From IMG/VR virus record IMGVR_UViG_3300045988_055134, positions 1,364 to 65,363 of that record: a DNA stretch of 64,000 nt. One strand, 5' to 3'. The stretch is from a virus. The notes below the pieces were generated by a model that was given only the letters and a program-made list of their open reading frames with translations, was not told where the DNA came from and did not search any database. The position numbers and the translations under genes were made by a program. Shown in pieces: positions 1,135 through 60,659 of the stretch (position 1 is the first letter of the stretch; every line of letters starts with the position of its first letter).

Positions 1135-1153
1135 TAGTAACTATTGTTAAGAA

Positions 1154-1591
1154 GTGGTGATTTCTTTGTATGACGTACTGACAATCTCAGATTACATTCT
1201 TAGACGCTGTTCTGACGAAGGGCACACTGTTAGTAATCTGAAGCTACAGAAATTACTGTACTTTGTTCAGGCTGAATTCCTTGTTACAACTGGAAAACCA
1301 TGTTTCCGAGAAAAAATTGTCGCTTGGGATTTTGGACCAGTAATTCCTGAAGTATATCGCAAGTTTTGCATTTTTGGTTCTGCTCATATTCCGGTATCCG
1401 CAGTCGCGAATCCGATATTATCTAAGGGAACCAAAGAACTTATTGATGGTATTGTATTCACTTGCTTACCATTTAGTTCGTCACAGCTCGTTGAAATCAC
1501 TCAGCATCAGACTCCGTGGCTCAACGCTTATATTAAAGGCTATGGCAGCGAGATCACAAATGAGTCAATTCTCAATTTCTTCGCAGAATAA
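1154..1591 (+). CDS. Panacea-domain (DUF4065, SocA-like antitoxin domain) protein
   Basis: Motif LKLQKLLYFVQAEF...WDFGPVIPEVY typical of DUF4065; GTG start. Confidence 0.65.
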   Translation: MVISLYDVLTISDYILRRCSDEGHTVSNLKLQKLLYFVQAEFLVTTGKPCFREKIVAWDFGPVIPEVYRKFCIFGSAHIPVSAVANPILSKGTKELIDGIVFTCLPFSSSQLVEITQHQTPWLNAYIKGYGSEITNESILNFFAE

Positions 1592-1661
1592 TATGCTCAG
1601 TCGGTAGAGCGTTCGATTGATAATCGAAAGGTCGTAAGTTCAAGTCTTATCTGGACTACCA
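1586..1661 (+). tRNA. tRNA-Ile(GAU)-like element: good D, anticodon (TTCGA/TTGATAA/TCGAA) and T arms and encoded CCA, but the 5' acceptor strand does not pair; probably defective
   Basis: Manual folding; 3' acceptor CTGGACT has no complementary 5' strand. Confidence 0.4.
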
Positions 1662-1723: not shown

Positions 1724-2583
1724 ATGAAGATTTATAATCCAACTAACTATTCTTATATCACTGTTGTAGAAATCCCTAAGACAGAGATTTCAAAGTTTGA
1801 TATGGCATTATGTCAATAGCCACGTTAGACTTTGAAAGCCTATTATGATAGCTGTACTGTTAAGCCTTCTATTATTTCAAATGGTGGTTTCTTTAACATG
1901 AGTAATGGTTCAACTATTTTGAATTATTCTGATGAAGGAAAAATCATTAGCTCTAATTCTTCTTATAAAGAAGGGTTTGGAACTATAAATGGAGAGCTAA
2001 GATACGGTGTAATTGGTCAAGAGAAGTTTGAAGACTTCGTAAGTGGTTATCCAGTTTTGATTAAGGCTGGCGCCGCAGTTCCTATTACTATTGCTTCTGA
2101 GATTAACTATAAAGCTAGAAGAACTGTTTTAGCTTATAATAAAGAGAATATCTTTATTGTGGCTATTGAATCTCCAGGTATGAACTTCTCGCAAATGCAA
2201 TCTTTCTTGCAGACTCTCAAGGTTGATTATGCTATTAACCTTGATGGAGGCGGAAGTACCAAGGTATTACATGATGGTAAGTGTATCACAAAAGCACTTA
2301 CTAATCGTCCTGTTGATAATGTAATGGCTGTTTATTTAAAGCCAAAAGTTATTTATAGAGTATAGCTTGGTGCATTTAGCAAGAAAGCTAATGCAAACGC
2401 ATTTTTGGCTAAGATTAAAGTTCTTCCAGACACAATCAATGCAGGATATAAAAACGCTTATGTCCGCAAGGTTGGTAGTTATTGGAAGGTACAAGTTGGT
2501 GCGTTTTCTGTGAAGACTAACGCAGCAAGAGTAGTTCATGATCTAGCTAACAAGGGATATAATGCTTTTGTTACAACAATTTG
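1724..2583 (+). CDS. phosphodiester-glycosidase (DUF2233/NAGPA-like, NLDGGGST motif) plus C-terminal SPOR domain protein; three in-frame TAG codons (1817, 1826, 2363)
   Basis: GAGGAAGGTGA RBS before ATG 1724; the reading frame is continuous through the TAGs to a TGA at 2581; SPOR motif YRV-TAG-LGAFS. Confidence 0.75.
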
Positions 2584-2658
2584 ATTTTGTATAAATATTA
2601 TGATATAATATTTATACAAGATAAGGAAAGACACATATTACAATATGTGTCTTTATAA

Positions 2659-5391: not shown

Positions 5392-5465
5392 GCGGGGTTA
5401 GGCTATAGGTAGACCATCAGCGTTAAAAGGCTGAAAAAGCGGTTCGAATCCGCAACCCCGCACCA
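5392..5465 (+). tRNA. atypical class I tRNA with an apparent 8-nt anticodon loop GTTAAAAG (UAA or UUA anticodon) and a 3-nt variable loop; CCA encoded
   Basis: Acceptor GCGGGGT/ACCCCGC is perfect; T-arm GCGG-TTCGAAT-CCGC; only the stem TCAGC/GCTGA fits. Confidence 0.5.
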
Positions 5466-5489: not shown

Positions 5490-6602
5490 ATGAATATTGT
5501 AAATGCAGGTTCTCGCTATCAGGTGTATGGCGAAGATGTTCAGACATACAAAGAGTTGCCTACTGCAACTTACACAGTCGGTTTCCATCCGCAGATGGGT
5601 TTTTGGCTTACCAAGCATGATGACCTTGTAATCAATGAGGGCACGATTTATGGCGATCATGCTCGCAAGGCAGATAAAATCCTTAAATCGTTTCAGATTA
5701 GCGCAAGAAACTTCGGTGTTATTCTTTCTGGTAAGAAGGGTATCGGTAAGTCTTTGCTCGCTCGAATGATTGCTAACAAATCTATTGAAAATGATATGCC
5801 TGTTATTATTGTTGATGCGGCTGTGCCCGGTATCAGCAATTTTCTTAGCTCTATTCAGCAAGAGGTAACAATCATTTTCGACGAGTTCGAAAAGACTTTC
5901 CACAAGACAGATGATGGTGATCCGCAGATAGAAATGCTTAGTCTATTTGACGGCATTGATAATGGCAAGAAATTATTCGTTATCACCTGTAACGACCCGC
6001 GTGACCTCAATGAGTTTCTTGTTAATAGACCTGGTCGTTTCCATTATCATTTCGAGATTACTTGCCCTGCACCTGAGGAAATTCGTGCTTACATGACTGA
6101 TAAGCTCGGCACTGGCTGGGACGACGAGATTGATAAGATTATTAAGCTGTCTCAGATGTCGAATATCACCTTCGACTGTTTGCGGGCTATTGCTTTTGAT
6201 CTTAAGCAGGGATACCCTCTCGAGGAAACTCTCATGGATCTAAATATCAACTACGAGCGTGATGTCGCTTATGATATTACCATTAGACTTTCTAATGGTT
6301 GGACTAATACCAAGTATAGTTACAGAGTTAACCTGTATTCTGCGGGATGGGTATATTGTGAATTTTACAATAAAGAGTTCTGCTACCACGTTAAATTCGA
6401 TGTGAAGAGTGTCGTTGCTGAGAATGGCGTGCTTTGTGTTGATCCCGATAAGGTCACACTATCGTTGCCGTGGGATGCTTTTGATGAGCTGCCAGACAAC
6501 GATGCAGAGATTGCTAAGAAACAGTGGCTCAATTCCACCTCCATTCTTTCTCTCACACTCACTAAGGTAAACGACTTGATGATTAACAAGTTTGGTGTGT
6601 AA
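5490..6602 (+). CDS. AAA+ ATPase (Walker A GKKGIGKS, sensor NRPGRFH)
   Basis: Motif content; GGAAG RBS. Confidence 0.75.
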   Translation: MNIVNAGSRYQVYGEDVQTYKELPTATYTVGFHPQMGFWLTKHDDLVINEGTIYGDHARKADKILKSFQISARNFGVILSGKKGIGKSLLARMIANKSIENDMPVIIVDAAVPGISNFLSSIQQEVTIIFDEFEKTFHKTDDGDPQIEMLSLFDGIDNGKKLFVITCNDPRDLNEFLVNRPGRFHYHFEITCPAPEEIRAYMTDKLGTGWDDEIDKIIKLSQMSNITFDCLRAIAFDLKQGYPLEETLMDLNINYERDVAYDITIRLSNGWTNTKYSYRVNLYSAGWVYCEFYNKEFCYHVKFDVKSVVAENGVLCVDPDKVTLSLPWDAFDELPDNDAEIAKKQWLNSTSILSLTLTKVNDLMINKFGV

Positions 6603-33404: not shown

Positions 33405-33663
33405 AAATTCTTTTTTATTTATCATTATAAATAAGAGGTGGTTTTATTGACAATATTATTATATATCTTACTGGGAGTTCTTTTGATCACTGTGGGTACC
33501 ACCTTATTGACTAGTGTTACTGAAATCATCAGCACACTAACAGAACTTGTTAAAGCTAATATAAATGAAAGGATTGTTCGACACAATGTTACCATTAGTG
33601 AACTTAATGAGTAGAAAACTCAAACTAGAACAATCGGATTCACTACCACAACTGAAGAGGACA

Positions 33664-34935
33664 ATGAATATGTATAATGAATTTCGCTTCCCAACAGACA
33701 CTTATTTTTATGATACTTGCTCTCTGTTGTTGGGAGGAGAAGAGTTATTTGAGCAAGATACTAAGCCATTTTTAGTATCCTCTATTACACTTAAAGAGCT
33801 TGAAAGAATTAAGACAGCATCTAATAAAGACGCTGATATAAAATATGCCGCTCGTCTCTTGTTACATCTATTTGAGAAATATCCAGATAGATATGAAGTA
33901 GTCCCGCATAAGATTTGTTACGAAAAGGTCATTCTTAAAAAGGGATTTGATATTACTGATGACACTAGAATCTTGTCTGACGCAATCGCAAGAGATAAGA
34001 ATGAAGATATTGTATTCGTAACTAATGATCTTAGTCTCAAACATATCGCAAATCAATTTCTTGGTCACGGAATGATAGAAAGCGTGAACGAAGATGCTGA
34101 TAACTATACAGGTTATGTAGAAGTAATCTTAGATGATAATGAGCTAAATGACTTCTATCAAAAGGCAGATAATAACTTTGGTTTACTGCCAGGACAGTAT
34201 CTCATTATTAAAGATAAAGACAATAAGATTGTAGACCTGCGAGTTTGGACAGGTAATGAGTTCAAATATCTTGTTTCAAAGCCCATTAAATCTAAATGGT
34301 TTGGCAAGATTATCCCGTATCAAGATGACATCTATCAAAAAATGTTATTTGATAGTTTACGAAATAATAAGTTGACTTTAGTGAAAGGCCCTGCTGGTAG
34401 CGGAAAAACTTATGTTTCTCTTGCTTATTTAATGGCGAAATTAGAAGCCGGAGAGCTAGATAAAATTATCGTATTTTGTAACACTATTGCCACAGCAAAT
34501 TCTGCTAAATTGGGTTATTACCCTGGAACAAAAGATGAAAAACTACTAGATTCTCAGATCGGTAATTTGCTGAGTAGTAAATTTGGAGGCAGAGAAGCTG
34601 TTGAAAAAATGATTGCAGACGGCAAGCTAGTTCTTCTACCTTTTTCCGATATTCGTGGATATGATACAACAGGAATGAGCGCAGGCATCTATATTTCCGA
34701 AGCTCAAAATCTAGATCGTACACTTATGAAACTAGCTTTACAGCGAGTTGGCGAAGATTGTATTTGTATTATTGATGGTGACGAAAAAACCCAGGTAGAT
34801 GACATTCATTTTTCTGGAGCTAATAACGGTATGAAACGTGTCTCTAAAATCTTTAGAGGACAAGACAGTTATGGTGAAGTCACTCTTAAGAATATCTATC
34901 GAAGCAAGATTGCGGCGATTGCTGATAAAATTTAA
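33664..34935 (+). CDS. PIN-domain plus PhoH-like ATPase (YlaK-like)
   Basis: N-terminal PIN, Walker A GPAGSGKT. Confidence 0.75.
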   Translation: MNMYNEFRFPTDTYFYDTCSLLLGGEELFEQDTKPFLVSSITLKELERIKTASNKDADIKYAARLLLHLFEKYPDRYEVVPHKICYEKVILKKGFDITDDTRILSDAIARDKNEDIVFVTNDLSLKHIANQFLGHGMIESVNEDADNYTGYVEVILDDNELNDFYQKADNNFGLLPGQYLIIKDKDNKIVDLRVWTGNEFKYLVSKPIKSKWFGKIIPYQDDIYQKMLFDSLRNNKLTLVKGPAGSGKTYVSLAYLMAKLEAGELDKIIVFCNTIATANSAKLGYYPGTKDEKLLDSQIGNLLSSKFGGREAVEKMIADGKLVLLPFSDIRGYDTTGMSAGIYISEAQNLDRTLMKLALQRVGEDCICIIDGDEKTQVDDIHFSGANNGMKRVSKIFRGQDSYGEVTLKNIYRSKIAAIADKI

Positions 34936-34942
34936 TAGTTAA

Positions 34943-34975
34943 GCCAAGAGTCTGAAAAAGACTCTTGACTTTAAT
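34943..34975 (+). terminator. rho-independent terminator
   Basis: CAAGAGTCT/AGACTCTTG followed by a T-rich tail. Confidence 0.6.
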
Positions 34976-35061: not shown

Positions 35062-35805
35062 ATGGAAATAAAATTTATTCCCGCTCATTCATCTAATTAT
35101 TATAGTGGGCGTAGTGGTAACTCTATTCTATATATTGTAGTCCACTATACTGCGAATAACGGAGATACAGCAGCCGGTAATGGCAACTATTTCTCTGGAG
35201 CTAATCGCCAGGCTTCCGCGCACTACTTTGTAGATGAAAACAGCATAGTTCAATCTGTGAAGGATTCAGATGGTGCTTGGCATTGCGGCGGCTCTTTAGA
35301 GTCTTCACATCACCCATATCGAAATATCTGCACAAACCGAAATTCTATTGGTGTCGAGATGTGCAGCGATATTGTAAATGGTAAATATGTCATTACCGAA
35401 GCAACAGTAAATCGTACAGTTGAACTAGTAAAGATGTTAATGAAAAAGTATAATATTGCGGCAGACCATGTTATTAGACATTATGACGTAACTGGTAAGC
35501 GTTGCCCAGAACCTTGGGTACGCGATGAAAGCAAGTGGATTGATTTCAAAAAGCGTCTGACCGCGACTGCACCAGCTAAATAGGAGGAAGAAATTGTGAC
35601 ACAGGATCAATTTAATAAAATGATGGATACTTACCTTGCGCAAAGAGATGTAAAGCCTATGACTTGGGAACAAGAGGCAATGAAATGGGCACAGGAGCAA
35701 GGTCTAATTAAAGGTAACGAAAAGGGTCAATTGATGCCAAAAAGCTTCCTGACTCGTGGCGAATTCGTTACTGTATTGAAGCGCTATGCTGAAAAGCAAA
35801 ACTAA
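35062..35805 (+). CDS. endolysin: N-acetylmuramoyl-L-alanine amidase (Amidase_2/PGRP) joined through an in-frame TAG (35581) to a C-terminal SLH-like wall-binding segment
   Basis: YIVVHYTANNG...AHYFVD...HCGG motifs; ORFs 35062-35583 and 35596-35805 are contiguous in frame across the TAG. Confidence 0.7.
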
Positions 35806-35878
35806 ATCAACTTAGCAAAAAAAGCATAGACAAAAATCTAAGAAAGAGTTTTCTAAATAGTTAATTTGCGATATTCGC

Positions 35879-36133
35879 TTGCTGTTATGGGTCGTAACTC
35901 TTTCTGGTATTTTGTTAGCGTTTTATTGCGTGCACTTAGGATATCTGGGATCTTTACCTTGGATTAGTGCGTTAGTTGGTTTACCTTGGTCAGCTCATGG
36001 GATAGTTTGCTCATTCTATCTTAATATGAGCAAGTCAGATCATAAAAAGGGTGGGATTACCTACGATCTAGCTATGTATAATGCATAGTAGTAGATGACA
36101 TACCCTTCTGATGAAGATTCAACGATCTAATAA
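35879..36133 (+). CDS. holin-like 2-TM protein whose frame runs through TAGTAGTAG (36086-36094) to a TAA at 36131
   Basis: Hydrophobic small ORF downstream of the endolysin. Confidence 0.4.
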
Positions 36134-36178
36134 TAAAGCTCGATAGACTTTCGTCTATCGAGCTTTTATTTGTTTTTA
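36134..36178 (+). terminator. rho-independent terminator
   Basis: AAAGCTCGATAGAC/GTCTATCGAGCTTT followed by a T-run. Confidence 0.75.
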
Positions 36179-42861: not shown

Positions 42862-42898
42862 GAGTCGGTAAGAGAATATCTCTTACCGACTTCTTTTA
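42862..42898 (+). terminator. rho-independent terminator
   Basis: AGTCGGTAAGAGA/TCTCTTACCGACT followed by a T-run. Confidence 0.75.
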
Positions 42899-42901
42899 AT
42901 T

Positions 42902-43813
42902 ATGATATATTTACTATTAGGTTTAATTATTGCTGCTTTGGCAGGATATGCTGTCCACCTCCGCAATGATCGGCTTAAAGTAGTATCAATAAATAGAGAG
43001 CGATAGGCAGAAAATGAGCGCATTGAATCAGATATTGAACGACATAATCTAGATTTAATGTAGCTAAAAGCTAACATAGATTAGTAGAATGAAGTTATCA
43101 ACTCTTTAATTGATACAGCTACTAAAATGCGGGAAAACGCAGAGCAGCAAGCTAAAGAAAGCGCAAAGACAATATATGCGCGAGAAACTGAAAAGTTAGA
43201 AAAAGTCTATCAAGAGTTCGAACAGCAAAAGGAAAAAGAACTCGCGGAAATCGCCTAGTAGGTTCTAGTAGAACAAGACAAACTGGAGCAGTTAGAAGCT
43301 AAATAGTTAGCATATATCCAAGCTCAATAGCGTCAAGAAGAGAGTGCCGCAAATTAGGACTATTATAGACTAACTATTGATGATTTAAGTGTTAATGATA
43401 TAAGTCTGTTGCGAGAATTATAGACTCGTTTCTTCAAGAAAGAAGCTATTGATAAGTTAATTTGGGAAACTTATTATAAGCCATCTTATGATGCACTTAT
43501 GAGTAAGTTATTTCCAAAAGCCTCTAAAGTCTGTGGTATCTATAAGATTACCAATTTAATCACTGGCTAGGCCTATATTGGTCAATCTGTTGATATTAAA
43601 GAACGTTTTAGGCAACATATTAAAACTTCTTTAGCTTACGGTCCAGCAACTAATAAGCTATATCAGGCAATGCAAAAATCCGGACAGCATAATTTCATGT
43701 TCGAAGTTTTGGAAGAAGTGCCTCGAGCTTAGTTGAATGAGCGAGAGACTTATTGGATTGAGTTCTATAAAACAAAAGATTATGGTCTAAATAGTACCAG
43801 AGGAGGCTCCTAA
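42902..43813 (+). CDS. 303-codon ORF carrying about 12 in-frame TAG codons: N-terminal TM helix, Gln/Glu coiled coil, C-terminal GIY-YIG nuclease domain (possible internal start at 43499)
   Basis: Continuous frame from ATG 42902 to TAA 43811 if TAG is sense; GIYKITNLITG-TAG-AYIGQS...YWIEFYK motif. Confidence 0.55.
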
Positions 43814-44828: not shown

Positions 44829-45209
44829 ATGAATAATAAGTATAAGCGTTTTATTGAATATTTCGATTGGCTCGTGCAGAATTGTAAAGAGCCAGTAAAT
44901 CTTCCTGACGAGGTTCAGGATGTCTATAATCTGTTGCGTGAGCAGCAAAATATGGAGAAGCCAATGTTCACAGAGAGTGGACTGGCAATTTTAGAATACT
45001 TACAGTCCTGTGATGCTACAAGTTAGAAAGCAAAAGATATTGCAGATGGAATGATTATTTCATCTCGTAAGATCTCTGGAGCTATTCGAAAACTCGTAAC
45101 CGATGGGTTTGTAGATAAATATGGCCAGAATCCTGTCATTTATAGCTTGACGGAAAAGGGTAAAAATTTTGATATTGACGGCTATAAAAACAATTTGAAC
45201 GAGAACTAA
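44829..45209 (+). CDS. winged-helix (MarR/PadR-like) DNA-binding protein with in-frame TAG (45024)
   Basis: The frame continues past the TAG into the wHTH segment ...ISGAIRKLVTDGFV... Confidence 0.5.
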
Positions 45210-50688: not shown

Positions 50689-52437
50689 ATGGATTATCAA
50701 TTAATCAAGCCTATTCAAGAAAACTATTCAGCGATTGAATAGGTTCTTACTAATCGAGGTATTAAGTTTGAAGACATCGCTCATTATCTTAATGTAACAG
50801 AGGAAGATAACTTATCTCCACTGCTATTAGACAATATAGAACAAGCCGCTAAGATGCTGTTTAACCAGTTACATAAAGACGGTTTCCATATTCATGTGCA
50901 AGTAGATAGTGATTGCGATGGTTATACTTCAGCAGCCTTACTATTGAATTACATTCATGCAATTATTCCATCTGCTATTGAGCATATCTCTTATAGTTTC
51001 CATAATGGCAAAATGCACGGAATTAATCCAGCTCTTATTCCATCAGAAACAACGCTGGTGATTGCTCCAGACTCGAGTTCAAACGATTATGATATTCATA
51101 AGATGTTGCATAATAAAGGAGTTGAAGTTCTTGTACTGGACCACCACCAAGCAGAAAAGATTTCTGAATATGCGTGTATTGTAAATAATCAGTTATGTGA
51201 TTATCCAACCAAATCATTATCTGGTGTTGGTGTTGTGTATAAGTTATGCCAGTTTATTGATTCTTTACTCCCAGCCAGTGAGCAAAAGGCAAATCAATTC
51301 TTAGATATGGTTGCAGTTGGTCTCGTTGGAGATATGATGGATTTACGAGATTTTGAAACCCATTATCTTGTTCAAACTGGTTTAAGTCAGCTTCAAAATC
51401 CTTTTATCAAGGGTATGGCAGAAAAAAACCATTATCAATTAGGTGACAATCCCACTCCAATAGGCGTAGCGTTCTACATTGTTCCTTTAATCAACTCGAT
51501 TACACGAGTAGGTACGTTAGAAGAAAAGACTTTATTATTCGAATCTATGTTGAATTGGAAAGCCTTTGACCTGGTGCCCTCCACTAAACGAGGATGCGCT
51601 GGCCAGCAAGAGACAAGATTAGATCAAAGTTTGCGGACTTGCACTAATGTCAAAAACCGCCAGACTAGAAACCAAGATGCTGCGGTTGAATAGGTTAAAA
51701 GTATTATCAAAGAAAATAATCTTTTAGATCATAAAATCTTACTTGTTAAGTTAGAACATCCGTCTTTTGATAGAGGTATTACTGGTCTAATTGCTAACAA
51801 GCTAATGGCAGAATATCAGCGTCCTGTTGCTCTACTTGTTGAAGTAGACGAAGATGGTAAAAAGGCTTGGAGTGGTTCTGCACGAGGATATGAGAAATCT
51901 AAGCTCAATGATTTTAGAGGTTTCTGCCGAGATAGTGGTTTGATTTATCTCGCGGAAGGACATCCTAATGCGTTTGGCTTTGGTATCTTAGATGAAAATT
52001 TTGATGCTTTTGTTGAGTACGCAGATACAACTCTTAAAGATATTGAGTTCTCACCTAGTTACAAGGTAGACTTTATTCATTCAGCCAATGACGTTAGACC
52101 TAAAGAAATCTTAGAACTAGGTAATATGAAGAATCTTTGGGGACAGAATGTAGATGAGCCGCTTATCGCGGTAGAACATTTATCTATCACTAAAGATATG
52201 ATTACCTTAATGTCTAGAGATCGAAATCCCACTTTAAAGATACAGTTATCCAATGGAATAACCTGTATCAAGTTTAAGTCTAGCGAAGAAGAACTAGAAA
52301 GTTTGTTTAGCGAGAATGGTTGTGTTACGATTAATCTCGTTGGCAAGGCGGAGGTAAACAAGTATTTCAATAGCGTGACACCACAGCTAATTATTCAGAA
52401 CTATGAAATCATAAATCGTCAAGAGTATTTCTTTTAA
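50689..52437 (+). CDS. RecJ-like DHH/DHHA1 phosphoesterase-exonuclease with two in-frame TAG codons (50740, 51691)
   Basis: AAGGAGG RBS; ORFs 50854-51693 and 51805-52437 are joined in frame across the TAGs; DHH motif VLDHHQ. Confidence 0.7.
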
Positions 52438-53942: not shown

Positions 53943-56900
53943 ATGAGTTATTTTAACAACCATGCTCATACTGAGTATAGTAATTTGCGCCTTCTCGATT
54001 GTATCAATCATCCAGAAGAGTTGATTGATAAGGCTATTGAGCTTGGTTTGACTGGTATTGCCATCACAGATCACGAATCCTTAAGTTCGCATATGCGAGT
54101 AAATAAGTATGCAAAGAAACTTCAGGAAACTCATCCTGAGTTTACTGTAGCATTGGGTAATGAGATTTATCTTACCGATACTCGAGATATGGGACAAAAG
54201 TATTATCACTTTATTTTGCTTGCAAAGAACGAGCATGGATACAGAGGTCTTAAAGAGCTATCTTCTATTGCGTGGACTAATAGTTACTATGATCGTGGTA
54301 TGGAACGAGTTCCGCTTTTGAAATCAGAATTACAGGAAGTTATGCAGAGATTTAAGGGAGATATTATCGGCACGACTGCATGTATCGGTGGTGAATTAGG
54401 TAGTTCTATTCTTAATCTCGATGCTCGCGAAAAAGCTAATGATACTGACAACGCGTATCGTTACCATAGACAGATTATTGACTTTATGGAATTTTGTATT
54501 GGCGTTTTTGGCAAGGACGATTTCTATGTTGAGTGCGCTCCTGCAAGCAACAATGATCAGATTACTGCAAATAAGAGAATGCTCAAAATTGCTCAAGCAT
54601 TTGATGTAAAGATGTGCGTTGGTACGGATGCTCATTATCTAACTAAAGAAGATAGATATGTTCACAAGTCTTATCTTAATTCTAAGGGTGGTGAGCGAGA
54701 AGTTGATTCATTCTATGAATTCACATATCTTATGACTGAGCAAGAGACAACTGATTTACTTTTGTCTAGCTTTGACTTAAATACAGTTTACTCTATCTAT
54801 GACAATTCTAATGAGATCAAGGATAAGATTGAGTTTTATTCTCTTGAGAAGCATCAGTCTGTCCCAGAAGTAGCAGTAACTCATTATAATCGCAGCGACT
54901 GGTCTCGCGTTCCCGCGGATATGATGGATACTTTCCGTGATGATTATAAGGTACTAACTTCCTTGATTGAGTCTGATAATGAGCAAGAGAAATATTGGAT
55001 TCAGGAGTGCATCATTGCAATGCAGGAGAAAGGTCTTATCCACAAGAAAGAGTATTGGGAAAGACTCGAAGAAGAAGCAAGAGTAAAGAGAGTTATTGGT
55101 GAGAAGTTGCAGACTTGTATGTTCGCATATCCTAATACATTGAAGCACTATGTAGATTTGTTCTGGAATTGCGGCAGTACAGTCGGCGCAGGTCGTGGTT
55201 CTGCGTGTGCAGCTTTAAATCATTATCTCCTTGGTATTACTCAGCTTGACCCCCTTGAATGGGACTTACCTTTCTGGCGTTACATTAATGATGAACGTGT
55301 TGAGTTAGGTGATATTGATCTTGACTTGGCGCCGTCTAAAATTCAGAAGATTTTTGCCGAAATCCGCAAGGAAAGAGGAGAACTTGGTCTTATTCAGGTT
55401 TGCACTTTCGGTACAGAGGGCACAAAATCTGCAATCTTGACTGCGTGTAGAGGTTATCGTTCTGAGGAATATCCCGACGGCATTGATGTTGATGAAGCCC
55501 AGTATTTAAGTTCTTTGATTCCTCAAGAGCGTGGTTTCCTGTGGCCGATTGAAGATGTTGTAAATGGTAATCAAGAGAAAGGCAGAAAGCCTGTTAAAGC
55601 ATTTGTAACCGCGGTTTCGCAGTATGAAGGCTTGCTTGATATTATTATTCGTATTCAAGGCATGGTTAATAAAAGAAGTAGTCACGCTTCTGGTGTTATC
55701 CTTTTTGATGAAAACATCTATGACTCTGCCGCGGTTATGCGAACTCCTAAGGGCGCGTTAATTACACAGTGGGATCTGCATGACCAAGAGGCTGCAGGTT
55801 CTGTAAAGTATGACTTCCTGCTAACAAGTGTACAGGACATTATCATTCAGACTATTGAGCTGCTTCAAGCAGATAAAGTTATTGAGCAAAACTTAACTCT
55901 TAGAGAGGTCTATAATAAGTATCTGCATCCATCTATTTTGCCGCAAGATGATGAAGCTATGTGGAACGCTCTGGCTAACAATGATGTAATTGGTTGTTTT
56001 CAGTTTGATAGCGCAGTTGGCGCACAGGCAGCTAAGAAAATCCGTCCGCATAATCCGTTAGAGATGGCGGATGCCAATGGTTTGATGCGTCTTATGGCTT
56101 CTGAGCCGGGCGCGGAAACTCCGATGGAAAAGTATGTTCGTTATAAGCATGATATTTCTCTTTGGTATAAAGAGATGGACAATAATGGCTTGACTAAGCA
56201 AGAACAGAAAACTTTGGAACCTTACTTCTTATCTTCTTATGGCGTACCTCCTTCTCAGGAGCAGCTAATGAAGATGTTGCGGGATCCAGATATTTGTAAC
56301 TTTAGTCTGGCTGAAGCGAATGCCGCGAGAAAGATTGTTGGTAAGAAACAGATGCATAAAATTCCAGAGCTTCATCAGAAAGTTTTGGATACGGCGAAAT
56401 CCGAGAAGTTAGGTAAGTACGTCTGGAAGTTTGGTCTCGGTCCGCAGATGGGTTATTCATTCTCCGTCATTCATGCTCTTGCTTATAGCTTCGTTGGTAT
56501 GCAGACTCTTTATCTTGCTACACATTTCAATCCTGTATATTGGAATACAGCATATCTTATCGTTAATAGTGGTGCTATTGATGAAGATGAGAGTGAGCAG
56601 TCAGATTATACAAAGTTAGCAAAGGCGATTGGTGAAATTCGTAACAAGGGTATTAAGGTATCTCTTGTTGATATTAACCATTCTGAGCTTGGCTTTAAAC
56701 CCGATACAGAGAATAATCAGATTTTGTTTGGCTTAAAAGGTTTAACAAATGTCAATAACGATTTGATTAAGACTATTATTGCAAATCGCCCATACGCATC
56801 TATGATAGATTTCTATTATAGAATAGCTCCTAATAAGCAAGCTATGATTGCTCTTATTAAGGGTGGCGCATTTGATCAATTCAAAGACCGCAAGAAGACT

Positions 56901-57833
56901 ATGGTAGAATATTTGTGGTTAACTTGCGACAAGAAGAAGCGATTAACTTTGCAGAATATACCGGGTCTTATTCGTTATGATTTAATTCCAAAGAATGATA
57001 CTTTTGCTTTACCAAAGCGAGTATTTGAGTTTAATAGATATTTAAAGGCTGAATGTAAAGATCCATTTGACCATGAGAGATACCATCTTGATGTAAGAGC
57101 GATTAACTTCTTAACTGAGATTGATTGTGAAGGACTCCTTGATGGTGAACTCGAGTCTTGGTATATCAATATTAAGACTTGGGATAAAGTTTATCAGAGT
57201 TATATGGATATTTTTAGAGATTGGATTAAAGAGAATAAGGATAGTATTCTTGATGAGTTGAACTCTCGTATCTTTATGCAAGATTGGGAAAAGTATGCTA
57301 GTGGTAACATCTCGTCTTGGGAAATGGAAGTTCTTTGCTTCTATTATCACGACCATGAATTAAGTAATGTAAATACTACTAAGTATGGTTTAGTTAATTT
57401 CTTTTCTCTTCCTGAAGAACCGGTTATTGAGAAAACTTTCAAGAAGGGTGCATCTCTTATTCCAATTTACAAGCTCAACCGCATTTGCGGAACTTGTATT
57501 GCAAAGAATAAAACCAAGAGTGTTGTATATCTTTTGACAACGACTGGTGTAGTATCTGTTAAGTTTAGACAGGAATATTTTTCACTGTTTGATAGACAGA
57601 CATTCCGCCGAAATAGCGATGGTACTAAGATTGTCATTGAGAAATCTTGGTTTAATCGCGGTAATATGATTGTTGTACAGGGCATCCGTCGTGGTGATGA
57701 ATTTGTAACCAAGAAGTATGCAAGTTCTGGTGGACATCAGTTGTATCATATTGACGAGGTATTAACAGATGGTTCGCTTATTCTTAGAAGTGAGCGAGCA
57801 ACAGGAGAGGAAGAAGATAATGGAGAAAACTAA
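53943..57833 (+). CDS. DNA polymerase III alpha-like (DnaE family) replicative polymerase with N-terminal PHP domain
   Basis: HTEYSNLRLLD...GIAITDHE PHP motifs; length 1296 aa. Confidence 0.8.
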   Translation: MSYFNNHAHTEYSNLRLLDCINHPEELIDKAIELGLTGIAITDHESLSSHMRVNKYAKKLQETHPEFTVALGNEIYLTDTRDMGQKYYHFILLAKNEHGYRGLKELSSIAWTNSYYDRGMERVPLLKSELQEVMQRFKGDIIGTTACIGGELGSSILNLDAREKANDTDNAYRYHRQIIDFMEFCIGVFGKDDFYVECAPASNNDQITANKRMLKIAQAFDVKMCVGTDAHYLTKEDRYVHKSYLNSKGGEREVDSFYEFTYLMTEQETTDLLLSSFDLNTVYSIYDNSNEIKDKIEFYSLEKHQSVPEVAVTHYNRSDWSRVPADMMDTFRDDYKVLTSLIESDNEQEKYWIQECIIAMQEKGLIHKKEYWERLEEEARVKRVIGEKLQTCMFAYPNTLKHYVDLFWNCGSTVGAGRGSACAALNHYLLGITQLDPLEWDLPFWRYINDERVELGDIDLDLAPSKIQKIFAEIRKERGELGLIQVCTFGTEGTKSAILTACRGYRSEEYPDGIDVDEAQYLSSLIPQERGFLWPIEDVVNGNQEKGRKPVKAFVTAVSQYEGLLDIIIRIQGMVNKRSSHASGVILFDENIYDSAAVMRTPKGALITQWDLHDQEAAGSVKYDFLLTSVQDIIIQTIELLQADKVIEQNLTLREVYNKYLHPSILPQDDEAMWNALANNDVIGCFQFDSAVGAQAAKKIRPHNPLEMADANGLMRLMASEPGAETPMEKYVRYKHDISLWYKEMDNNGLTKQEQKTLEPYFLSSYGVPPSQEQLMKMLRDPDICNFSLAEANAARKIVGKKQMHKIPELHQKVLDTAKSEKLGKYVWKFGLGPQMGYSFSVIHALAYSFVGMQTLYLATHFNPVYWNTAYLIVNSGAIDEDESEQSDYTKLAKAIGEIRNKGIKVSLVDINHSELGFKPDTENNQILFGLKGLTNVNNDLIKTIIANRPYASMIDFYYRIAPNKQAMIALIKGGAFDQFKDRKKTMVEYLWLTCDKKKRLTLQNIPGLIRYDLIPKNDTFALPKRVFEFNRYLKAECKDPFDHERYHLDVRAINFLTEIDCEGLLDGELESWYINIKTWDKVYQSYMDIFRDWIKENKDSILDELNSRIFMQDWEKYASGNISSWEMEVLCFYYHDHELSNVNTTKYGLVNFFSLPEEPVIEKTFKKGASLIPIYKLNRICGTCIAKNKTKSVVYLLTTTGVVSVKFRQEYFSLFDRQTFRRNSDGTKIVIEKSWFNRGNMIVVQGIRRGDEFVTKKYASSGGHQLYHIDEVLTDGSLILRSERATGEEEDNGEN

Positions 57834-58430: not shown

Positions 58431-60659
58431 GTGTTTCTATTGCTACAAGTAAAGAAAAGAAATGGTATCCTTGTACCATTTGATAAGCAAAGAATTGTAA
58501 ACGCTATCAACAAGGCTTTTATCGAGGTTGATGGCATTCTGTATGAAGAAGATACGGCGAAAGATATTGCCGATGAAATTAAATATAGCGTAAAGACTGC
58601 GGATGATATTATCTCAGTTGAAGAAATTCAAGATATGATTGAGAATTTCTTAATGCGCTCTGAAAGAAAAGATGTTGCCAAGGCTTATATCAGATATAGA
58701 TATAAGAGAGAAATGGTGCGCTCTAGTAATGATGACTTTATTCAAGCGTTCTCTGAAAAAGTTAGCGGCTCTTCTATTGAACGACAAAACGCTAATGTTG
58801 ATGAGCTATCGTTTGGAGGTCGTGTTGGCGCAAGTTCAGACCTTTAGATGAAGAAATATGCGCTTGATTATTGCGTATCTGATATGGCTCGCAATAATCA
58901 CCGCAATAATGAAATTTATATCCATGATTTATCCGCTTATGCAGTTGGTATGCACAACTGTCTATCTATTCCTTTTGATCACTTGCTTGCCGATGGGTTT
59001 AACACTAGACAAACTGATGTAAGACCCGCAGGTTCAGTGAATACTGCATTTCAGTTGGTAGCAGTGATTTTCCAACTTGAATCTCTCCAGCAGTTTGGTG
59101 GCGTAAGTGCAACACACCTCGACTGGACGATGGTTCCTTATGTAAGAAAAAGTTTTAGAAAGTACTATATTGAAGGCTTAAAATATATTGAGAATATCTC
59201 CGATAAAGAGCTTTTTGACCATATTCCAGATAATGCTGGAATTGAAGATGATGAATATATGATTTATGATAAAGCATATCAATATGCTCTTGATATGACT
59301 ATTAAAGAAGTACATCAAGCTGTAGAAGGTATGTATCATAATCTTAATACTCTTCAGTCTCGCTCTGGTAATCAACTACCATTCACATCTATTAACTATG
59401 GTACTTGCACTTTGCCCGAAGGTAGAATGGTAATTAAAGCATTACTTGATGTCTCTATTGAGGGACTTGGTAAACTGCATAAAACTTCTATCTTCCCATG
59501 CGGTATCTTCCAATGTATGAAGGGCGTCAATCAAAAGCCAGATGATCCGAACTATGATTTGTTTAGACTGGCTCTAAGATCCACTGCAACTAGACTCTAT
59601 CCTAACTATGCTAACGTTGATTGGTCTGGCAATGCAGGATATGACCCGAATGATCCCAAGACCTATTTTAGCACGATGGGTTGCCGCACCGCGAATGGTT
59701 GGGACGTCAATGGCATGGGTCAAACAAAAGATGGTAGAGGTAATATCTGCCCTGTAACCATCATCATGCCTACTCTTGCTATGGAAGCAAAAGAAGCAGC
59801 AGATGCCGCATATCCTGACGCAAACGCCATTGATTGTTTTATGTCTCTACTTGACCAGAAAATTCATGAAGCTAAGGATATGCTGCTAGAACGATTTGAT
59901 TATATTTGCTCTCAGCCTGCTGAATCCGCGAAGTTCATGTATGAAAATGGCGTAATGGCTGGCTATGATGGCAAGACAACCCGTAGTGCATTAAAGCATG
60001 GTACTCTTGCTGTTGGTCAATTAGGCCTTGCAGAAACGCTACAAATTCTTATTGGTCAGGATCATACTACTTCGCAGGGTATGGAACTAGCTAAGAAGAT
60101 TGAGCAGCTCTTCCAAGATAGATGTGCAGCTTTCAAACAACAGTATCAGTTAAACTTTGGCGTTTATTATACACCTGCGGAGAACCTCTGTTACACTGCT
60201 ATGACGAAGTTTAAGGACAAGTATGGAGAAATTCCAAACGTAAGTGATAGAGATTATTTCACTAACTCTATTCATGTTCCGGTATGGAAGAAGATGTCAC
60301 CTTTTAAGAAGATTGATATTGAAAGCCAGCTGACCGGTTATTCTTCTGCTGGCTGCATTACTTACGTTGAACTTGATAGTGGCGTTAAGAATAACATTGA
60401 CGCTCTGGAAACTTTGGTACTTTATGCTATGGAACATGATATTCCGTATTTCGCAATTAACGTTCCTAACGACACTTGTCTTGAGTGTGGTTACATGGAC
60501 GAATTTAATGATCACTGCCCAGTTTGCGGAAGTCACCATATTCAACAGCTTCGACGTGTTACAGGCTATCTAACCGGTAATTATACAACTGCCTTTAATG
60601 CAGGTAAAGTTGCCGAAGCCAATGATAGAGTAAAACATTCAGGTCGATTGGAGGAATAA
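58431..60659 (+). CDS. nrdD: anaerobic ribonucleoside-triphosphate reductase with N-terminal ATP-cone; in-frame TAG at 58845 at the cone/catalytic junction
   Basis: ATP-cone VKKRNGILVPFD; glycyl-radical RVTGYL; C-terminal CxxC..CPVC. Confidence 0.8.

Follow-up and report, generated by a model that had tools for sequence, protein, structure and literature searches.

In-frame TAG codons, predicted to encode glutamine, in the lysis cassette of an undescribed gut phage lineage

Reassignment of the TAG stop codon to glutamine (genetic code 15) is known from several groups of gut phages (crAss-like, Lak, Garnet, Amethyst and some Agate phages), which have dropped TAG as a terminator, encode a tRNA with the anticodon CUA within the lineage and have hardly any TAG in their replication genes. 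Borges et al. (bioRxiv 10.1101/2021.08.26.457843) described the recoding of stops in gut-phage genes for structure and lysis; they found a significant preference for TAG in genes for amidase, spanin, a transmembrane (TM) protein of the lysis cassette and homing endonuclease, reported that large Firmicutes phages, e.g. Agate (154 ± 27 kb), have their lysis cassettes split among several modules, and proposed that recoding blocks premature lysis. Another gut phage of ~136 kb, phAss-1 (proposed Phassvirus), also reads TAG as glutamine and carries a tRNA-Sup(CTA) (Babkin et al. 2023, PMC10607447). Here we describe the lysis cassette found in a stretch of 64,000 nucleotides of viral DNA (IMG/VR record IMGVR_UViG_3300045988_055134, positions 1,364 to 65,363; referred to as the window and numbered from its first letter). 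The cassette comprises an endolysin gene and an overlapping holin-like gene, both on the plus strand like almost all genes of the window, and both contain in-frame TAG codons.

The window originates from a tailed phage of roughly 146–148 kb that belongs to an undescribed lineage of phages of gut Clostridia; its host is probably a member of the Oscillospiraceae. When the lysis region was compared at the nucleotide level with 50,697 phage records, only short matches of 66–75% identity and no usable annotated relative were obtained. The lineage is not close to any isolate; DNA polymerase III alpha is only 39% identical to that of the nearest ones (Enterococcus and SPbeta-type phages). Across every fetched region, the window shares ~96% identity with two contigs, IMGVR_UViG_3300045988_051734 and _059494.

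Recoding of the lysis genes in this phage is an instance of the published pattern in an undescribed lineage, and its regulatory role is hypothetical. The traits listed above for code-15 gut phages, i.e., in-frame TAG for glutamine, loss of TAG as a terminator, a lineage-encoded tRNA(CUA) and replication genes nearly devoid of TAG, appear to be shared by the window or, in the case of the tRNA, by its lineage. Likeness to the phages of Borges et al. extends to enrichment in genes for amidase, a lysis-cassette TM protein and a GIY-YIG or homing-type endonuclease, to a lysis cassette that lies apart from tail-fibre-like genes (here located just past the window end), to a Firmicutes host and to a genome size near that of Agate. 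By contrast, the lineage is a different one, the TAG load rests chiefly on the holin-like gene (five of seven glutamine codons, three of them in tandem) rather than on the amidase, and the suppressor tRNA of the sub-lineage has an unusually long variable arm. With phAss-1 the window has in common the gut origin, TAG for glutamine, many tRNA genes including a tRNA-Sup(CTA) in the lineage, and TAGs in many assigned open reading frames (ORFs). However, the search of the lysis region against the phage collection revealed no nucleotide similarity to phAss-1. In that phage, 28% of the ORFs contain TAG, those for TerL and portal among them, as compared with 13 of 77 genes, mostly with a single TAG, in the window. 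What is notable about the locus described here is the accumulation of five TAGs within 114 codons with a tandem triple, the shift of the load between the two lysis genes among sister lineages, and the long-armed suppressor tRNA.

Several observations indicate that TAG is a glutamine codon in this phage and that TAA and TGA serve as its only terminators. Gene models based on code 15 comprise 77 genes with a total of 18,649 codons, all of which terminate at TAA or TGA; 31 TAGs are distributed over 13 of these genes, most of which hold a single one, and the other 64 have none. Under the bacterial standard code (table 11) the window contains 87 ORFs ending with TAA (61), TGA (18) or TAG (8). Six of the eight TAG-ended ORFs extend in frame into the remainder of the same protein, the seventh is a small TM ORF (33438–33614) with an in-frame extension to 33677, and the eighth, with 57 codons, is unsupported; a convincing TAG-terminated gene was not found among the ORFs of the window. 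Conserved proteins or domains are interrupted by TAG alone, as judged from Pfam matches on both sides: Amidase_2 and SLH are separated by the TAG at 35581, DHH and DHHA1 plus RecJ_OB by that at 51691, ATP-cone and NRDD core by that at 58845, and NAGPA and SPOR by that at 2363. The TAG at 45024 lies within a winged-helix (HTH_27) domain that is continued on its other side, a GIY-YIG protein is interrupted as well, and the TAG at 36086 is preceded by the holin-like ORF and followed by its conserved acidic tail.

The identity of the inserted amino acid was addressed by codon-by-codon comparison with the DNA of fetched relatives. The commonest partner of window TAGs is CAA or CAG, which was found opposite the TAGs at 1817, 2363, 35858, 36086, 36089, 43004, 43259, 43328, 43421, 51691 and 58845. 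In the reverse direction, evaluated for the replication module (~44.8–62.3 kb), TAG sites of relatives correspond to CAG or CAA in the window in 62 of 155 cases, with GAA being a distant second. The assignment to glutamine is thus derived from these codon comparisons, because the suppressor tRNA has no clear closest paralogue, and it agrees with the reading of TAG as glutamine that a preliminary description of this DNA had put forward as one of two options. Programmed readthrough as it occurs in the A1 protein of Q-beta or gag-pol of murine leukemia virus (MuLV) resembles the situation in the window insofar as a C-terminal extension is added when a stop is decoded as sense. Those systems, however, involve a single leaky stop that is read in a standard-code context at a few percent; in the window TAG is never a terminator, sites exchange with CAA/CAG in relatives and a dedicated tRNA is present in the lineage. 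With ~31 in-frame TAGs spread over 13 genes and no convincing TAG-terminated gene, the window does not fit a standard-code genome with programmed readthrough at a single site.

The endolysin gene (35062–35805, plus strand) is preceded by a Shine-Dalgarno-like TGGAGGTGA located 7 nt 5' of the ATG at 35062. Its upstream ORF (35062–35583) encodes 173 amino acids with an Amidase_2 domain (E = 7e-27) and is ended by TAG at 35581–35583. Beyond this codon 73 sense codons follow in the same frame, uninterrupted by TAA or TGA until TAA at 35803–35805, and this stretch matches the SLH wall-binding domain (E = 4.5e-8). Reading TAG as glutamine leads to a protein of 247 amino acids with Amidase_2 (residues 19–151; E = 1.7e-26), a linker that includes the TAG-encoded residue (...TATAPAK-Q-EEEIVTQ...) and SLH (residues 196–235; E = 3.5e-7), and the endolysin also matched PHROG endolysin families. 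In L018 and L019, the two nearest relatives (~96% identical), the gene is one unbroken ORF with AAG (Lys) at the TAG site (...TATAPIK-K-EEEIVTQDQF...). We conclude from this arrangement that the window endolysin is most probably a single 247-residue protein, that the TAG arose by a recent single substitution in the interdomain linker, and that its decoding would be required to attach the SLH module. The preliminary description had proposed exactly this dependence of the wall-binding segment on TAG 35581, and the SLH match past the TAG together with the unbroken ORFs of both nearest relatives bears it out. The possibility, raised there as a counter-argument, that homologous endolysins might lack a C-terminal domain has no basis in the 80 related loci, where an SLH-type C-terminus behind an acidic linker is kept by the endolysins of the family, with catalytic parts that vary (lysozyme-like plus amidase, CHAP-like, Amidase_3, Amidase_2).

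The holin-like gene (35786–36130, plus strand; 114 codons) overlaps the 3' end of the endolysin gene by 20 nt and contains TAGs at 35813, 35858, 36086, 36089 and 36092. The first (35813–35815) is codon 10 in the variable basic N-terminus and the second (35858–35860) is codon 25, specifying Q of the conserved motif EFSK-Q-LICDIR. The remaining three form the tandem run TAGTAGTAG (36086–36094; codons 101–103), which would add QQQ to a poly-Gln linker. In the preliminary description the gene was taken to begin with TTG at 35879, and the TAGs at 35813 and 35858 were overlooked. The invariant residues S23, L26, D29 and R31, however, are encoded upstream of this TTG, and ATG 35786 is the only in-frame ATG, GTG or TTG located 5' of the conserved motif inside the ORF bounded by TAA/TGA; the gene therefore extends from 35786 to 36130. 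Three consecutive in-frame TAGs had been noted correctly. Of the predicted "QQQ plus 12-residue tail", the QQQ part agrees with the Q-runs of homologues and the conservation of the tail, yet the tail has 11 residues (MTYPSDEDSTI), since the first in-frame TAA is not at 36131 but at 36128–36130. This codon is the first of three TAAs (36128–36136) at the foot of a strong terminator hairpin, and the triplicate stop is common to the window, L018 and L019 only; in other lineages the gene is closed by TAA-TAT-TGA or by one stop.

Relatives of the holin-like gene exchange TAG for glutamine codons at several of these sites. At the position corresponding to 35858, CAA was found 17 times, CAG five times and TAG seven times, and more distant relatives have K, R or W; the codon is TAG in L003 as in the window, and CAA in L001. 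Counterparts of TAGTAGTAG read CAA CAA TAG in L003 and CAA CAA TAG CAG CAA in L001, and in L018 and L019 they are identical to the window sequence. Another N-terminal site is CAA in the window and TAG in L001. Roughly 200 homologues are present in protein databases, of which those with 96–115 amino acids span both the N-terminal extension and the tail; they must have been called with TAG as Q, because a table-11 translation of the loci misses the query. A tail ending in TI is common to the homologues. In more distant members, a stop (TAG, TGA or TAA) directly follows a conserved C-terminal Ile (...SPAI), and also in standard-code members translation stops immediately after this residue. Such distant copies include ones in genomes of Oscillospiraceae (Flintibacter, Colidextribacter, Oscillibacter, Flavonifractor).

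These comparisons bear on the view that TAG is a genuine stop in a standard-code phage. The endolysin would then be an amidase without binding domain, the membrane protein would end with ...AMYNA at a fail-safe triple stop, and the downstream ORFs would be separate or decayed. Each TAG-ended ORF is indeed conceivable as a table-11 gene, and the window itself does not contain a suppressor tRNA. Nevertheless, five conserved multi-domain proteins would all have to be split exactly at TAG, relatives have sense codons and unbroken ORFs at those sites, conservation of the tail past TAGTAGTAG extends to a common stop, the N-terminal motif of the membrane protein is conserved upstream of the sole table-11 start, and a near-identical relative encodes tRNA(CUA). 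Contradicted by the comparative data in so many respects, the standard-code view appears excluded, and we give it practically no credence. The triple-stop alternative of the preliminary description falls with it, given the conserved tail and the Q-runs of homologues, none of which ends at ...AMYNA.

Designation of the product as a holin is inferred from size, hydropathy and topology, and gene position. Similar to class II (two-TMD) holins, the putative protein is small (114 amino acids), has a basic N-terminus (charge +9), two hydrophobic segments and a charged hydrophilic C-terminus, and its gene starts shortly before the endolysin gene ends, an arrangement kept in about 78 of 80 related loci. 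On the Kyte-Doolittle scale, residues 32–52 form a strong segment (peak >2) and residues 57–79 a moderate one. In 78 of the 80 IMG/VR loci, the ORF immediately 5' of the holin-like gene ends in an SLH-type wall-binding domain, which is typical of the endolysins found beside this family. Features that deviate from class II holins are the moderate second segment, the tail, which is net acidic (−2) rather than basic, and the lack of a holin match: the protein did not match a PHROG family at E ≤ 0.01 nor, beyond noise, a Pfam family at E ≤ 0.1. The cassette is located among replication-type genes of the same strand and is bracketed by terminator-like hairpins. One of them, detected with a consensus scan, follows the PhoH-like gene (34945–34967, plus strand; 9-bp stem, T-rich tail), and the other, resembling an intrinsic terminator, closes the lysis unit (36135–36166, plus strand; 14-bp stem, T tract). 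The small hydrophobic ORF mentioned above (33438–33677; 79 amino acids if TAG 33612 is read through, with GGA in its place in relatives) extends across the start annotated for the PhoH-like gene, whose true start is probably near 33664.

A conceivable consequence of partial suppression is the formation of two products per gene, whose ratio might tune lysis in the manner of holin/antiholin pairs or heteromeric endolysins. Truncated and full-length forms would be a 173-residue catalytic domain and the complete enzyme in the case of the endolysin, and proteins of 100 amino acids (ending with ...AMYNA) and 114 amino acids in the case of the holin-like gene. A free SLH module might be added to this set, as hinted at by the sequence AGGAGG (35582–35587) right behind the endolysin TAG, which is followed after 8 nt by an in-frame GTG at 35596 (35582–35598 in total, plus strand). 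At the equivalent point relatives have an acidic linker and then the Met with which the wall-binding module begins. Some endolysins of phages of Gram-positive bacteria (Lys170, CTP1L, CD27L) give rise to an extra binding-domain product via an internal start. However, AGGAGG merely codes for K/Q-E-E in the linker, the TAG that would generate the endolysin forms is missing from the nearest relatives, and the N-terminal TAGs of the holin-like gene would yield useless peptides of 9 and 24 residues. On balance, a two-product design seems very improbable.

Enrichment of TAG is evident when its share among glutamine codons is considered. In the holin-like gene, five of seven glutamine codons are TAG, whereas the remaining 76 window genes together use TAG for 26 of 626 (Fisher p = 4e-6). 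The corresponding values are 12 of 27 for a gene encoding a TM segment, a coiled coil and a GIY-YIG domain (p = 2e-10 versus the rest) and three of nine for the NAGPA-SPOR gene (p = 8e-4 versus the rest). With one TAG among 11 glutamine codons, the endolysin gene shows no significant excess (p = 0.23), and the fractions for recJ and nrdD are 1/23 and 1/32, respectively. Within the window, the notion of an amber-loaded lysis cassette put forward in the preliminary description therefore applies to the holin-like gene but not to the endolysin, whose TAG is recent and not enriched; for the cassette as a whole, preferential use of TAG recurs in scorable sister lineages. TAG is not restricted to late genes either: the RecJ, NrdD, ThyX-like and winged-helix (wHTH) genes have one each, and the GIY-YIG gene has the largest number (12).

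For comparison across lineages, the genes encoding PhoH, RNase H, GyrB, GyrA and ligase were used as a flanking set. In the window-type lineage TAG makes up 5/7 glutamine codons of the holin-like gene, 0–1 of 10–11 in the endolysin gene and 0 of 61–63 in the five flanking genes. The L001-type lineage has 2–3 of 7–9, 4–5 of 30–33 and 0–2 of ~60, respectively. In the L040-type lineage the holin-like gene is devoid of glutamine codons, and the values for endolysin and flanking genes are 10/24 and 0/56. Likewise, L043 has 1/1 in the holin-like gene, 11/24 in the endolysin gene and 0/55 in the flanking genes. The holin-like gene of the L038/L039 lineage, for which an endolysin was not identified, has no TAG. 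Thus the TAG load shifts between the holin-like gene and the endolysin gene among sister lineages, and in every TAG-bearing lineage in which both lysis genes could be scored, one or both of them are TAG-rich. The lysis cassette of these lineages contains 4–12 TAGs versus 0–2 among the ~60 glutamine codons of the five flanking genes. Third-position GC of the lysis genes (0.35–0.36) is not below that of TAG-free neighbours (0.27–0.37), and simple AT pressure therefore fails to explain the bias.

One may nonetheless ask whether TAGs accumulate as a neutral by-product of recoding, with C-to-T changes (CAG to TAG) and poly-Gln slippage scattering them over fast-evolving genes and linkers, and with TAGTAGTAG and the linker TAG having no regulatory meaning. 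Counts and positions do vary between close lineages (0–5 in the holin-like gene, 0–11 in the endolysin gene), the endolysin TAG goes back to one recent change of AAG in a linker, and the run TAGTAGTAG resides in a low-complexity Q stretch of variable length and codon composition. Moreover, the holin-like gene also ends in a trinucleotide repeat, TAATAATAA, and TAG-rich genes favour CAA over CAG, the opposite being true for TAG-free genes (155 CAA, 322 CAG). What such turnover does not readily account for is that the cassette is TAG-rich in each scorable sub-lineage while PhoH, RNase H, GyrB, GyrA and ligase have 0–2 TAGs per ~60 glutamine codons and the third positions of these neighbours are at least as AT-rich. 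Lineages that differ in ~25% of residues have also retained the central TAG of the Q-run along with several TAGs of the GIY-YIG gene, and unrelated recoded phages show enrichment in the same classes of genes. We therefore regard a purely neutral origin as unlikely, though deserving of serious consideration.

A source of suppressor activity was identified outside the window. Within its 64 kb, 14 tRNAs predicted by ARAGORN and two further Rfam tRNA matches all lack a CUA anticodon. The contig _059494, represented by locus L098, which was obtained by fetching the region around a 370-codon gene at window position 5490, encodes a tRNA with anticodon CUA (L098:2999–3089). As base 1 of the window aligns to L098 position 4658, this gene would belong to the same tRNA array and precede the window start by ~1.6 kb. 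Its product, a tRNA of 91 nt, has an anticodon loop CU-CUA-AA, a U1-C72 mismatch, G73, an encoded CCA end and an unusually long variable arm of ~20 nt. A weak 1–72 pair and G73 are identity features of tRNA-Gln. Sister lineages (L100–L115) also possess tRNA(CUA), either in the same 91-nt form or in a homologous form of 75–76 nt without the long arm, the latter being located at a different position of the array in L110–L115. Comparison with other phage tRNAs did not disclose a clear closest relative. A near-cognate reading of TAG by a phage tRNA-Gln(CUG) was dismissed as needless once tRNA(CUA) had been seen in the near-identical contig. Loci of 20 kb from the upstream region of another sub-lineage (82–88% identity), which were reached via the window ORF 1154–1588, contained no tRNA(CUA), and an exact-protein look-up of this ORF returned no record.

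Two tRNA-like genes of the window, at 93–166 and 5392–5465, were considered as suppressors and discarded because they lack a CUA anticodon and have loops of 6 or 8 nt. The former has a 6- or 8-nt anticodon loop (ARAGORN 'tt'; 33.9 bits in Rfam) and lacks homology to the odd tRNA found in the loci with 82–88% identity. The latter folds well (z = -4.3), has an 8-nt loop GUUAAAAG ('taaa') and is conserved in place in L098–L109, with 'taga' instead in L099. Farther along the array, a tRNA-Ile(GAT)-like sequence (1585–1658; 48 bits in Rfam) that lacks the 5' acceptor strand abuts ORF 1154–1591. At the same place L098 has intact genes for tRNA-Ser(AGA) and tRNA-Ile(GAT) and no such ORF, and the region (window 1139–1658) looks like a window-specific insertion into the tRNA array.

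Taking these data together, we favour, with moderate confidence, a model in which a code-15 phage has recoded its lysis genes such that full-length lysis proteins depend on suppression, which would act as a safety catch. The model presumes that the window's own genome carries the tRNA(CUA) of its relative, that this tRNA is charged with glutamine, and that the host uses the standard code. If the host terminates at TAG, full-length lysis proteins would be made solely once the phage suppressor is active. As the holin-like protein would need five independent suppressions, its yield would scale with about the fifth power of the per-codon efficiency, and the result could be a steep, late-acting catch on lysis for a cassette that is situated amid replication-type genes of the same strand, where such a translational catch would be of use. 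The endolysin of the window strain, having one TAG and none in the nearest relatives, would depend on suppression only weakly. Our data would fit the published hypothesis that lysis is delayed until the suppressor has accumulated. It is tempting to extend the model to an ultrasensitive timer in which the five suppressions, three of them back to back, make full-length output a steep power function of the charged suppressor and generate a sharp lysis switch at a threshold level of tRNA(CUA), the product truncated at AMYNA and thereby devoid of the acidic tail serves as an antiholin-like inhibitor, and the load shifts among lineages because the gate can reside in either gene; we consider this extension improbable.

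A number of observations weigh against the safety-catch model. Among relatives with tRNA(CUA) or TAG-rich neighbouring genes, the holin-like gene contains between 0 and 5 TAGs at varying positions, and the TAG of the endolysin gene is replaced by AAG in the nearest relatives; neutral turnover could be the source of both kinds of variation. Because TAG is also present in genes of replication and nucleotide metabolism (recJ, nrdD and the ThyX-like gene, one each), a strict early/late partition fails. At TAG 45024, relatives have TTG, TTA or TGG (Leu or Trp) and not a glutamine codon. The presence of tRNA(CUA) in the phage's own genome is deduced from a relative, since the 64-kb window has none, and the charging identity of a 91-nt tRNA with a ~20-nt arm and no closest paralogue is not settled by sequence. 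Finally, the holin call has no counterpart in Pfam or PHROG, both of which were searched.

The cassette adds an independent lineage to the cases in which lysis genes are a preferred site of recoding and thereby strengthens the idea that recoding acts as a safety catch on lysis; the existing understanding of how such phages work is left unchanged. It also represents a compact test object, given a gene of 114 codons with five TAGs, sister lineages with two, three or none, and a cassette bracketed by hairpins. For annotation, the use of table 11 would mis-call at least 13 genes of the window: the endolysin would be truncated, the holin-like protein cut to 69 amino acids and a GIY-YIG protein of 303 amino acids missed.

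The latter protein is encoded at 42902–43813 (plus strand) and consists of a TM segment, a Gln-rich coiled coil and a C-terminal GIY-YIG domain identified with Pfam. Its 12 TAGs are the maximum per gene in the window; the orthologue in L001 has 13, and TAG and CAA are swapped at many sites among relatives. Interpretation of 42872–43813 as a 1.1-kb non-coding gap was rejected in favour of this gene. With its N-terminal TM segment and long coiled coil, the protein is unlike a typical free-standing homing endonuclease. The third gene with a TAG excess encodes a protein with a NAGPA (phosphodiester glycosidase; E = 5e-18) and a SPOR domain (E = 1.4e-14) and is located at 1724–2584 (plus strand), with TAGs at 1817, 1826 and 2363. 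The last of these specifies Q of the SPOR motif VQLGAF and is CAA or CAG in relatives. This gene is thus a second peptidoglycan-directed, TAG-enriched gene, which is embedded in the tRNA array at a great distance from the lysis cassette.

Single TAGs are also present in the following three genes, all on the plus strand. The TAG at 45024 falls within the HTH_27 match of a winged-helix protein, a small putative regulator (44829–45209). The gene of a RecJ-like exonuclease (50854–52437) has TAG 51691 between DHH and DHHA1/RecJ_OB, where relatives have CAG (16) or CAA (7), and that of the anaerobic ribonucleotide reductase NrdD (58431–60659) has TAG 58845 between ATP-cone and NRDD core, where relatives have CAA (22) or CAG (6).

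Past the window end, a near-identical contig (L207:1–9400, equivalent to roughly 67.8–76.7 kb of the window) has a module on the opposite strand that encodes tail-fibre-like proteins, a reverse transcriptase (eight TAGs) and a serine recombinase/invertase (six TAGs). Its TAG content greatly exceeds that of the replication module, and judging from the counts in the reverse transcriptase and recombinase genes, TAG-rich modules exist elsewhere in the genome, too. The module may constitute a diversity-generating or invertible tail-fibre system. In contig _059494 (L173:10001–15065), the gene for DNA polymerase III alpha is ~1.2 kb longer than in the window (53943–57830), which suggests an intein or homing-endonuclease insertion in one strain only. 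Two contigs that carry the holin-like gene, L287 (147.8 kb) and L325 (147.9 kb), were binned with metagenome-assembled genomes (MAGs) of Eubacterium and Oscillospiraceae; to judge by size, both probably represent complete genomes of phages from this clade that were misplaced in bacterial bins.

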